From Promethearchaeota archaeon (lineage in GTDB: Archaea > Asgardarchaeota > Lokiarchaeia > Sigyniarchaeales > SOKP01), in NCBI GenBank assembly GCA_030606485.1, contig JAUWGH010000004.1, positions 419,003 through 451,002 on the forward strand: a stretch of 32,000 nt of DNA, given 5' to 3'. Position 1 is the stretch's first letter. Each line of letters starts with the position of its first letter. Position numbers and translations under genes: made by a program. Positions 12,435 through 32,000 of this stretch are shown piece after piece. The notes beneath the pieces were generated by a model, which saw only the letters and a list, made by a program, of their open reading frames with translations, was not told the DNA's origin and did not search any database.

Positions 12435-12531
12435 TGCTTCTGGGGGGATTTGAACCCCCGTCAGGAGGGTGAGAGCCTCCGATGCGTTGCCCTAATTTTT
12501 TATTAGTTTGACCGAGCTACACTACAGAAGC
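12435..12531 (-). tRNA. tRNA-Glu(CUC) with a 22-nt intron at position 21/22; CCA not encoded
   Basis: Acceptor GCTTCTG/CAGAAGC+A; anticodon arm GGAGG-CTCTCAC-CCTCC (anticodon at 12471-12473); T arm GGGGG-TTCAAAT-CCCCC; removing 12486-12507 restores D arm GTGT..GCAT and a 75-nt tRNA. Confidence 0.95.
12486..12507 (-). other. tRNA intron in the D loop (relaxed bulge-helix-bulge)
   Basis: Intron ACTAATAAAAAATTAGGGCAAC; inner hairpin CTAAT/ATTAG; central helix GGTC/GGCA (3 of 4 pairs); 3-nt bulges AA|A and AC|G. Confidence 0.8.
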
Positions 12532-24984: not shown

Positions 24985-25644
24985 ATGGTGAGAGTTACAG
25001 CAGATCATCGCATTTATATAAAAATTTTATACTGGGGCATGGCTGGCTCGGGTAAAACTACTATAGTAGACACCTTATATCGTCTAACAAAAGAACAAAA
25101 AAAAGACATAGAACCTACAGGAAATTTAACAAAAATTGCTATGGCAAGTGGCTCTACTTTATATTTTGATAGAGGAATTTTTCAATCTACAAAAGAACGA
25201 AAAGTATATTATCATGTTTATACAGTTGCTGGACAAAGTCGATTTTCTCCATTAAGAAAAAAAATATTCAAAGGATCAGATGGAGTAATATTTGTAGTAG
25301 ATTCTCAAACTCATCTCTTCGAAGATAATATTGAATCATTAAAAGAATTAAAAAGCGTAGCTAAAGGTTCTTTAATTAAAGAAATTCCCTTGTTACTAAT
25401 GTTAAATAAGAAAGATTTAACAGAAACGATAAGTGCAAGTGAATTTGAGCAAATTTTAAAAGAAGAAGAATTATGGTATGATCCGCCTCATAAATTAACA
25501 TTCTGGGATCCTATAATCTACGAGTCTTGTGCATTATATAATAAAAAAAGAGAAATATATAGAAGTTTTTATGAATGTGCTAGGCGAACAGTATTGTATC
25601 ATATATATGGAAATGGAACAGCTCCATTAGATAATGAATCATAA
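24985..25644 (+). CDS. Small GTPase, MglA-like
   Basis: G1 GMAGSGKT, G2 STLYFD, G3 YTVAGQ, DGVIFVVDS, G4 NKKD. Confidence 0.85.
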   Translation: MVRVTADHRIYIKILYWGMAGSGKTTIVDTLYRLTKEQKKDIEPTGNLTKIAMASGSTLYFDRGIFQSTKERKVYYHVYTVAGQSRFSPLRKKIFKGSDGVIFVVDSQTHLFEDNIESLKELKSVAKGSLIKEIPLLLMLNKKDLTETISASEFEQILKEEELWYDPPHKLTFWDPIIYESCALYNKKREIYRSFYECARRTVLYHIYGNGTAPLDNES

Positions 25645-25899
25645 AAATACGATGAACAAAATTATAACTATTCCTTACAATTAAATTTTTTATGTTTTAA
25701 ATTCATCACCAAATTATAATTCCTTTAATAATTTAACTTATAATAACACTTTTATTATCGCCCTTAATCTGAGATCACCAATTTTTGCTTTAATTAAAAA
25801 ATTATAATTAAATTTATAATTTAATTAAAAATTATTGATGAAATCTTTATTTGTTTTCTCAAGATTTTTTAAATTAATATGCAAAGAAAAGAAATTTTA

Positions 25900-25967
25900 A
25901 TTCTCAGCGTAACTATTAACTCATCACTCGCCAAATGACATCAGATTTGTCTAGTCTCATCATAGAA
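25900..25967 (-). ncRNA. Box C/D 2'-O-methylation guide sRNA
   Basis: Minus strand TTCT-ATGATGA(C)-GACTAGACAAAT-CTGA(D')-TGTCATTTGGCGA-GTGATGA(C')-GTTAATAGTTACG-CTGA(D)-GAA: all four boxes perfect, guides of 12 and 13 nt, terminal stem. Confidence 0.92.
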
Positions 25968-25991
25968 TTATAAATTAATTAATTAATACTA

Positions 25992-26003
25992 CTTAATAAA
26001 AAA
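25992..26003 (-). promoter_or_regulatory. Putative TATA box of the C/D sRNA
   Basis: TTTTTTATTAAG about 25-35 nt upstream of the C box; T-rich tract TTTCTTTTCTTT downstream of the D box. Confidence 0.4.
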
Positions 26004-26282
26004 CTAGAATTTCTAATAGAAATTGAAAATCTTATCTTCAACTCTAAGATTTAACTTAAGTTCCAAAAATAATTGGTTTTTAACAAAAAAATTAATCTCT
26101 TAATCTCATTTTAAAATATTTAATTCTACTTTTTATCAATTTAGGGCTCTTATTTTTGAACTATGTAGGGAAACTAATATCAATTGGCTATAATTAAATC
26201 GGGATCGCAAATAACAATAACTTAAATATCAAAAAAATTATAAATTAAATTAATATTGATTAAAATTTATGTGATATAATTT

Positions 26283-27875
26283 ATGGAAAAAATCATACCA
26301 TTTATGATCGGAGATGTAAAATATGTCCCCTCTCAAACTAGGAGAACATTTATTGAAGAAATAGCCTTGTCATTATGTGTATTATTCGAAGAAAATGGTA
26401 GTATTATTAAAAAATGGGGCACAATTGAAACAATTTCCTTATGTTTTTGGCCAGTTAGATTAATTCCTTTAAATGAAAATCGTGCTTGTGTTAATAGTTA
26501 TCTATTTCATAATGCTCCTAAAATTCTAGTAGGTCCTTTTAAAAAAATACCACTAAATCCTGAAGCAGTTATTAAGGCTTCCGATTCTGAATCTTTTATT
26601 AATTCTTTAATCTCCTATAATTCAAAATATCTTTCTAATAAGGCAAATTTTTCACGTAAAACAATTATTCAAGAAGCCTTATTTGGTATTGATGAAATCA
26701 ATTTTTTTAAACCCTTTTTCTCTAATACCTATAGTTTAAAGACATTTGAAGCGAAACATTTTATTCTGTATGGAGATCCCATAACCAAAAGTGTCGATCA
26801 AATCAATATTCGTAAAGAAATTTATGATTTTATAAATTTTACAGATATTAATATGTTAGATCAATATAATGATAAAATCAATAAATTATGTGATAAATGG
26901 ATTGAAAAAACTTCAAAGGATGTTGATAATTATAAAATTAAAACAATAGATCACCAAAAGGAAGAGGAACAGTTAGAAAGATTAAATAAAGACTTAAGGG
27001 AAGAAAAAGAGAGAGGCTTGCATGATTCTGATGAAGAGTTATTGAATTCAGGAAAATTTAAGATTAATGATATTTCATCTGTTATTATTAATGAAATTGA
27101 ATCATTAAAAAAAGAAATATTAAAACTTGGCCAATCAACAAAAGAAAAAAATTTACCTCTAATTAATGATAACATTAAAAACTCATATAGAGAGTGTAAA
27201 ATGGTTGAAAATTCCATAAAACAATTCGATAATGAAATAACTGCATTAAAAAGAAATTTATTAAAAGAAAGAAATAATATTCAAAAAAATCATAACTCAA
27301 AAATTTCTAGTTTAGAATCCAATATTAATTCAATAAAAACAAAAATGGACTCTGATGAGAAAGATTATAATAAAGAATTTGTAGATCTTCAAAATATATT
27401 AAAACAAATTCAAAAACAAAAACAAAAAGTTAATAATAATTTTTTAATCATTAAAGAAATGGAGTTGGATAAAGTACAAAAATTTTTGCATGAATATACT
27501 CTAGAGATCAAAACAGATAATGTGATTGTTGGAATACCAATCTTTATTTTCAATTTTCGAAGTCCTAAGGCGGATAAAGTAAATAAATACATGCCTGTAT
27601 TACCTATATTAATTAGTGAAGGGAAAAAAAAGGGGAATGTTGCAAATGTAAAATCCAAAATAAAAACAATTTTTACAGATCGGTTCATTAAAATATTTAA
27701 TAAATATAAAGCAATGAAAGATTTGATCTCTGTAGAAAGTAAAAAGAATAATATATTAGAAATTAAAAATTTAACATCTTTATTATTAGAATCAATAGAT
27801 GAATTAAGAATGAAGGAGATAATCTCAAAAAAGATTTCAATAAATGTAAAAGATCTAATTGAATTATTAATATAA
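26283..27875 (+). CDS. Hypothetical protein with long central coiled coil (530 aa)
   Basis: Globular N-terminus (ISLCFWPVRLIP), E/K/N-rich heptads from about aa 200 to 400, beta-rich C-terminal part. Confidence 0.7.
   Translation: MEKIIPFMIGDVKYVPSQTRRTFIEEIALSLCVLFEENGSIIKKWGTIETISLCFWPVRLIPLNENRACVNSYLFHNAPKILVGPFKKIPLNPEAVIKASDSESFINSLISYNSKYLSNKANFSRKTIIQEALFGIDEINFFKPFFSNTYSLKTFEAKHFILYGDPITKSVDQINIRKEIYDFINFTDINMLDQYNDKINKLCDKWIEKTSKDVDNYKIKTIDHQKEEEQLERLNKDLREEKERGLHDSDEELLNSGKFKINDISSVIINEIESLKKEILKLGQSTKEKNLPLINDNIKNSYRECKMVENSIKQFDNEITALKRNLLKERNNIQKNHNSKISSLESNINSIKTKMDSDEKDYNKEFVDLQNILKQIQKQKQKVNNNFLIIKEMELDKVQKFLHEYTLEIKTDNVIVGIPIFIFNFRSPKADKVNKYMPVLPILISEGKKKGNVANVKSKIKTIFTDRFIKIFNKYKAMKDLISVESKKNNILEIKNLTSLLLESIDELRMKEIISKKISINVKDLIELLI

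Positions 27876-31037: not shown

Positions 31038-32000
<963 letters not shown>

Follow-up and report, generated by a model that had tools for sequence, protein, structure and literature searches.

The window, by which we mean the whole 32,000-nucleotide stretch of DNA analysed here, contains a 638-bp gap without any open reading frame (ORF) of at least 40 amino acids. This gap is bounded by a gene for a small Arf/Ras-like GTPase (positions 24985–25644, plus strand) and by a gene for a protein of 530 amino acids that has no Pfam match (26283–27875, plus strand). Inside the gap, on the strand opposite to both bounding genes, we observed an element with the anatomy of a box C/D sRNA. Including its terminal stem, it has a length of 71 nt and covers positions 25899–25969 of the minus strand. 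A T-rich and a TATA-like flank are present beside it. The candidate TATA-like promoter element, UUUUUUAUUAAG (25992–26003, minus strand), is found ~23–34 nt upstream of the stem and lies inside a block upstream of the sRNA (25993–26052) that, in a comparison of three genomes of the genus, is more conserved than any other part of the gap.

Read from 5' to 3', the element begins with the first half of the terminal stem, AAUUC (25965–25969), which pairs with the second half, GAAUU, at the other end (25899–25903). A single spacer U separates the stem half AAUUC from the C box AUGAUGA (25957–25963). This is followed by the D' guide GACUAGACAAAU of 12 nt (25945–25956), the D' box CUGA (25941–25944), a D'–C' spacer of 13 nt (25928–25940), the C' box GUGAUGA (25921–25927), the D guide GUUAAUAGUUACG of 13 nt (25908–25920) and the D box CUGA (25904–25907). 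All four boxes agree exactly with their consensus, which for the C box is RUGAUGA. The D' guide is antisense to UUGUCUAGU in the 23S rRNA and the D guide to GUAACUAU in the loop of 23S helix 69 (H69). The element thus has a C box near its 5' end, a D box near its 3' end, internal D' and C' boxes and guides of 12 and 13 nt where about 12 nt are typical of C/D sRNAs. Of the ~9–12 nt of antisense that are expected to place the target at the fifth guide position, the D' guide has 9 bp and the D guide 8 bp, the latter being borderline.

An earlier note on this DNA had placed, in a '640-bp' ORF-free gap, an intergenic box C/D sRNA whose four boxes are perfect and whose guides of 12 and 13 nt are accompanied by a terminal stem, and all of this is confirmed. 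The note placed the element at 25900–25967 and gave no strand; with the stem, the extent and strand are those stated above. It had furthermore pointed to TATA-like and T-rich signals of the sRNA's own. The flanks do exist and the upstream block is conserved, but in DNA of 71% A+T they are weak indications of a putative promoter and terminator.

To see how unusual this arrangement is, it can be compared with the rest of the genome. A genome-wide scan with the strict four-box C/D pattern resulted in a single occurrence in 3.75 Mb (29% G+C), compared to a chance expectation of ~0.002 per genome as estimated from the composition. With relaxed boxes and a 5-bp stem, we obtained four matches in the real genome and one in a shuffled genome, and among these matches only the sRNA at 25899–25969 has at least 9 bp to rRNA. 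From these patterns, we regard the four-box element with its stem as a genuine box C/D sRNA and not as a product of chance. At the Rfam gathering thresholds, no family was found at the locus. When E-values of up to 10 were allowed, the 30 matches were weak and generic to C/D RNAs, the best being snoU2_19 with 27.3 bits at a cut-off of 39. A naive genome-wide scan for 9–11-nt rRNA antisense followed by NUGA was uninformative and was set aside, as at 10 nt it gave 758 matches and the reversed-rRNA control 751. We note separately that the whole genome yields a single strictly canonical C/D sRNA and, when the boxes are relaxed, only four candidates; the lineage seems to have either very few methylation guides or guides that are too degenerate for simple patterns.

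We compared both guides to the rRNAs and tRNAs of the host, a check that the earlier note had proposed. The single 23S gene is located on another contig (G000:C6:71617–74798) and its H69 reads GGGAGUAACUAUAACUCUC. This H69 contains GUAACUAU, as the note had assumed from conserved sequence, and D guide positions 2–9 pair with it over 8 contiguous bp. Three more pairs form when one guide A is bulged, as had also been noted, which brings the total to 11. Position 5 of the D guide falls on A2140 of the 23S rRNA, the second A of GUAAC, which corresponds to E. coli A1913. The register that led the note to A1913 is thus right; however, the pairs are A/U-rich and an 8-bp match in the 23S rRNA is equalled by 15% of shuffled guides (P=0.15), so that it is not significant alone.

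The D' guide, whose target had been missed by the earlier note, finds its best match in all assembled rRNA in UUGUCUAGU, with 9 contiguous Watson–Crick pairs at guide positions 3–11. Its position 5 falls on G2172 in the host sequence CCUUGUCUAGU, which corresponds to E. coli G1945. [quoted passage not shown] It is located 32 nt downstream of A2140, and the best 23S matches of both guides are thus close neighbours. A 9-bp match of the D' guide in the 23S rRNA is equalled by 3% of shuffled guides (P=0.03), and D and D' matches within 60 nt of each other occur in 0.02% of the shuffles (~2 in 10,000). The second guide thereby strengthens the case for a double-guide sRNA. Among tRNAs, the best runs were 7 bp for the D' guide and 6 bp for the D guide. 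The window ends inside the 16S gene (31039–32000) and the 16S screening covers only the first ~960 nt of this gene, the 3' part being unassembled; in the assembled part, the D' guide has no partner of 8 or more contiguous bp, and its best run through position 5 is 5 bp, whereas the D guide has a match of 9 bp that is discussed below. We conclude that the element is probably a double-guide C/D methylation sRNA of a Lokiarchaeia-type Asgard archaeon, which would act on domain IV of the 23S rRNA.

The sRNA was found by BLAST in four other genomes of the genus, and near-identical copies are present in metagenome-assembled genomes (MAGs) whose titles name Promethearchaeota or Promethearchaeia, the kingdom of Asgard archaea in NCBI taxonomy. 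Among the distinct sequences of the genus, of which there are four, three agree at all 13 positions of the D guide and one departs from them at position 13 only. The D'–C' spacer is the most variable part within the genus. In G004, it is completely different and both guides are retained; here, the D' guide carries GG at positions 1–2, which extends its complementarity to 11 nt when judged against the 23S rRNA of the window genome. A covariance model built on the genus sequences (R1) detected homologs in 30 of the 81 genomes of the family. Outside the genus, these homologs have degenerate boxes (C approximately AUGAAAA, D UUGA, D' AUGA and C' AUGAUAA). Their D guide has 12 nt with UUAUAGUUAC at positions 2–11 and is complementary to H69 AGUAACUAUAAC over 10–12 nt; in G014, all 12 nt of the D guide GUUAUAGUUACU are complementary to H69. 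Their D' guide forms 11 pairs with CCUUGUCUGGU, one of which is G-U. H69 itself is identical among all 23S genes of the family that were recovered. Since the relatives have a D guide of 12 nt and the same H69, we read the 13-nt guide of the window as the family guide with one extra A, that is, as a 1-nt insertion in this genus, which had also been overlooked before.

The homologs differ in further respects that do not involve the guides. Copies from other genera of the family (L075–L100 and L267–L278) contain a 5-bp stem, CCUAC...GUAGG, in the D'–C' spacer, a conserved outer helix GGUU ... AACC with AUAAA on each side before the terminal stem and an upstream GGAUUUCCC-like element. The spacer stem, the outer helix and the upstream element are all absent from the window's genus. 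The outer helix may be a processing or circularisation stem. Throughout the family, the sRNA gene is located a few kb upstream of the 16S gene, and many homologs are found ~3.4 kb from a contig end. The sRNA and the 16S gene are on opposite strands in the window's genus (G001:C27 and G002:C111) and on the same strand in G009:C76 and G013:C229.

As the insertion cut the contiguous pairing from 10–12 bp to 8 bp, H69 methylation may be weaker in this genus than in its relatives. A more extreme reading is that the D guide no longer methylates H69 in the genus, that only the D' guide works, on G1945, and that the D guide is kept for the symmetry of the ribonucleoprotein (RNP) or as a chaperone. This would agree with the loss of contiguous pairing down to 8 A/U-rich bp and with the energy of the free duplex with H69, which is –10.2 kcal/mol with the bulge allowed, compared to –14.6 kcal/mol for the ancestral guide. 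However, the D guide is near-identical within the genus while the spacer changed freely, which fits continued selection on the guide, and positions 2–9, including the methylation site, are intact. We thus consider a complete loss of the H69 function improbable, and retain the reading in which both guides would direct methylation. The genus-specific insertion of one nucleotide provides a natural test of the pairing length that the RNP needs.

Still less likely, in our view, is that the insertion retargeted the D guide or added a second target, namely the second A of CUUAAC in an apical hairpin of the 16S rRNA. The possible site, CUUAACUAUUAGU (31614–31626, plus strand), comprises the hairpin loop and the 3' strand. 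We take this hairpin to belong to h21, and by hand alignment the target would lie near E. coli A622. The D guide forms 9 contiguous Watson–Crick pairs with this site at positions 3–11, plus one at position 1, and in the assembled part of the 16S rRNA such a match is equalled by only 1.2% of shuffled guides (P=0.012). Moreover, the match exists only when the guide insertion is combined with the 16S stem specific to the genus (UAUUAG instead of UAUCUG). On the other hand, position 2 is mismatched, the site is buried within the molecule's own hairpin, and the free duplex is weaker than that with H69 (–7.9 compared to –10.2 kcal/mol). In addition, UAACUAU is common to H69 and the 16S site, so that a near match is expected by coincidence, and the D' guide finds no comparable partner in the assembled part of the 16S rRNA. 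The 16S hairpin is thus a minor possibility as a D guide target, and H69 remains our preferred target for the D guide.

Beyond the family, the covariance-model search of Asgard genomes that the earlier note had suggested gave further homologs. Model R1 had no match in 14 genomes of the sister family f2. With a second model (R2) applied to five chosen genomes, we found copies in two genomes of this sister family, G042 (L296) and the 6.0-Mb closed genome G055 (L297). Both keep the H69 D guide UUAUAGUUAC, and their H71 D' guide is lost or changed, so that the H69 and H71 functions can occur apart. For G044, a closed genome of 4.4 Mb, model R2 gave no convincing copy. The double guide was detected by model R2 in four more Asgard families (f21, f24, f26 and f27), with weaker matches in two others.

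We also scanned all GTDB species with a pattern that required a C' box, UUAUAGUUAC, one free base and YUGA. This resulted in at least 120 loci, and in 100 of 120 a C box and a D' box are found upstream as well. Among the matches listed, 80 titles comprise 52 Asgard names, 14 entries of 'uncultured archaeon' and 14 bacteria. The Asgard names among the matches listed are Promethearchaeota, Heimdall-, Hod-, Hermod-, Thor-, Jord-, Frey-, Borr- and Sifarchaeota; these lineage labels, including those of MAGs labelled Heimdallarchaeota, were assigned by the submitters and may in some cases be incorrect. Two loci from the first pattern scan, one titled Bathyarchaeota (L056) and one Euryarchaeota (L059), were discarded because they have no second box pair.

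The comparison of homologs reveals compensatory changes at several levels. In an alignment of 27 homologs that was fitted to the model, all five pairs of the terminal stem show double changes, 93.7% of the cells are paired, and this covariation was reached by none of 500 shuffles. The kink-turn pair between C box position 6 and D box position 1 is G:C in the sRNA of the window and in four other Asgard families, and A:U in the remainder of the window's family. The D' guide tracks the 23S rRNA: UUGUC faces GACAA in the window's family and UUGCC faces GGCAA in f21, where the 23S rRNA was read. Within the D guide, positions 2–11 are invariant across Asgard families and positions 1 and 12 vary. Archaeal C/D RNPs use ~10 bp of substrate, which would fit the invariant positions. 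The covariation between guide and target, in guide length and in the kink-turn and stem supports a working RNA. That box-like words merely happened to line up in A+T-rich intergenic DNA, without an RNA gene, could be argued from the single-sequence fold of the element, which is no better than that of shuffles (z = –1.2). However, C/D sRNAs usually behave in this way, the strict pattern is found only once in the genome at an expectation far below one, and homologs with covarying stems and conserved guides across the phylum contradict this reading, which we hold to be extremely improbable.

The genome also encodes proteins with which the sRNA could function. Adjacent genes on contig C6 encode fibrillarin (PF01269, 259 bits) and Nop5 (PF01798, 215 bits), and two L7Ae-family genes are present on contig C5 (PF01248, 94 and 51 bits). 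Once transcribed, the sRNA would be assembled as in the archaeal C/D RNPs that have been studied: L7Ae would bind to both the C/D kink-turn and the C'/D' motif, and two copies of fibrillarin would be brought in by a Nop5 dimer. Each guide would then pair with the pre-23S rRNA, and a 2'-O-methyl group would be added to the rRNA nucleotide that faces guide position 5, counted upstream from box D or D'. The D guide would in this way select A2140 (E. coli A1913) in the H69 loop, which forms bridge B2a, and the D' guide would select G2172 (E. coli G1945) in the first pair of H71. The equivalent of G1945 in the first pair of H71 belongs to the region of bridge B3 (PMC5027482). Because the D guide addresses the upstream site and the D' guide the downstream site, 32 nt apart, both guides could pair simultaneously with one rRNA strand. 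It is thus possible that the sRNA also helps the H69–H71 region to fold.

Double guides of this kind are known from other archaea. Helices 68–71 are a hotspot of methylation in which numerous predicted sites surround E. coli A1912 (A2178 in the alignment of that study) (Dennis et al. 2015, BMC Genomics 16:632, PMC4644070). In Ignicoccus hospitalis, the sRNA sR91 is predicted to target A2179 and G2211 of the 23S rRNA, which correspond to E. coli A1913 and G1945, and both sR91 and the Sulfolobus acidocaldarius sRNA sR113 were detected by RNA-seq, with sR113 being abundant (PMC4644070 supplement). When comparing sR91 to the sRNA of the window, we find the same layout, that is, a C box, a D' guide that addresses H71 on its 5' strand, D' and C' boxes, a D guide against the H69 loop and a D box. 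The D guide of sR91, CAGAGUUAC, addresses H69 GUAACUCUG, and its D' guide, CGGCAAG, addresses H71 by pairing with GCUUGCCGAGU in the same register as the D' guide of the window. The letters of the guides differ between the two sRNAs because the rRNAs differ. Furthermore, the boxes of sR91 are less canonical (D' CCGA and C' GUGAGGA), and the D guide of the window has an extra A relative to sR91. In Sulfolobus acidocaldarius, the D guide of sR113 puts the A1913 equivalent at position 5, like the sRNA of the window; its D' guide has no predicted rRNA target (PMC4644070), so that sR113 is not an H71 double guide.

A scan with the crenarchaeal form of the guide, UCAGAGUUAC, detected the double guide in further genomes of Desulfurococcaceae, Desulfurococcales and Ignisphaera. 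The earlier note had presented the sRNA as an Asgard guide for a modification conserved in eukaryotes and had itself stated that broad guiding of the same target in other archaea would weaken the link to eukaryotes. As the target is predicted to be guided in non-Asgard archaea as well, by a double guide in Ignicoccus and further Desulfurococcales and by sR113 in Sulfolobus, the link is weakened and an Asgard-specific form of it is not supported. It is plausible that the Asgard and Desulfurococcales copies are homologous. Model R2 reached none of the Desulfurococcales loci at an E-value of 0.05 or better, and the shared order of the guides could also come from topology alone, as favoured by simultaneous pairing to one rRNA strand. 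All in all, we think it likely that the sRNA is a new Asgard member of the published archaeal double-guide family, and that this family is old and shared with Desulfurococcales. Our literature search for C/D sRNAs of Asgard archaea found no description, and a RiboMeth-seq paper on P. furiosus gives no list of sites; the entry in the catalogue is therefore new, although its kind is known.

In eukaryotes, the H69 nucleotide addressed by the D guide is, by position, also the target of yeast snR63 (25S Am2256) and human SNORD46 (28S Am3739). Yeast Ψ2258 and Ψ2260 correspond to E. coli 1915 and 1917 (PMC2794176), and Am2256 thus corresponds to A1913. The human number 3739 follows from Ψ3741; the table in that paper prints 3749 (PMC2794176). 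The positional equivalence put forward in the earlier note thus holds. For the second target, human 28S G3771 forms the first pair of H71 with C3787, 16 nt away, and Gm3771 corresponds to yeast Gm2288 (PMC5027482); the spacing is the same as that between G2172 and C2188 of the host. Human SNORD15A guides Gm3771 from upstream of its D' box, as the D' guide of the window would do for the equivalent nucleotide. The second site of SNORD15A is A3764 and not the H69 adenosine, unlike in the sRNA of the window, so that eukaryotes use different snoRNAs for the two archaeal targets. In yeast, 25S Gm2288 is presumably guided by snR75.

The earlier note had also suggested that the sRNA could be ancestral to SNORD46 and snR63. 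These eukaryotic snoRNAs have a different overall layout from the sRNA of the window, and the antisense letters that they share with it are forced by the shared target, so that descent cannot be inferred from them. The Rfam models of SNORD46/snR63 and SNORD15/snR75 do not match the sRNA even at E-values of up to 10. A descent of SNORD46/snR63 from this RNA is thus conjecture and cannot be shown. In a broader scenario, the double guide would predate the split of Asgard and TACK archaea, would have been inherited by the archaeal ancestor of eukaryotes and would then have been split between the SNORD46/snR63 and SNORD15/snR75 lines. We regard this scenario as rather doubtful; if true, the double guide would be one of few methylation guides that can be traced from archaea into eukaryotes.

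Distant archaeal lineages mostly do not share precise methylation sites; only the clustering of these sites is conserved (PMC6009581). The H69/H71 double guide is an exception, as its targets are found again in many Asgard lineages and in Desulfurococcales, and correspond to modified sites of yeast and human. Because the double guide is the only clearly recognisable C/D sRNA in a genome of ~29% G+C, this suggests that the predicted methylations of A1913 and G1945 at the subunit interface are those least easily lost.

Lastly, we describe additional observations made on the 23S genes of relatives and in the window. A hairpin-forming insertion of ~30–34 nt is found directly after H69, between CUCUUAA and AAGGUAGCC, in two members of the same genus, L244 (G003:C20) and L245 (G002:C87), and also in L261 (G076) and L263 (G027). 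It is absent from the window genome and from G001, lies between the two target sites of the sRNA and could be a mini-intron or a micro-expansion. In L262 (G071:C16), an insertion of 30 nt is located inside the H69 loop, between GUAACUAU and AACUCUC. As this loop forms bridge B2a, the insertion most likely represents an intron removed by splicing. In the 23S rRNA of family f24, the H69–H71 halves are ~820 nt apart in G180:C44 (L290/L291), with the break right after H69, which looks like a large rRNA intron. In the window itself, a tRNA of 97 nt at 12435–12531 (minus strand), which was missed by ARAGORN in both the window and the genome-wide run, was found by Rfam with 50 bits and probably contains an intron.
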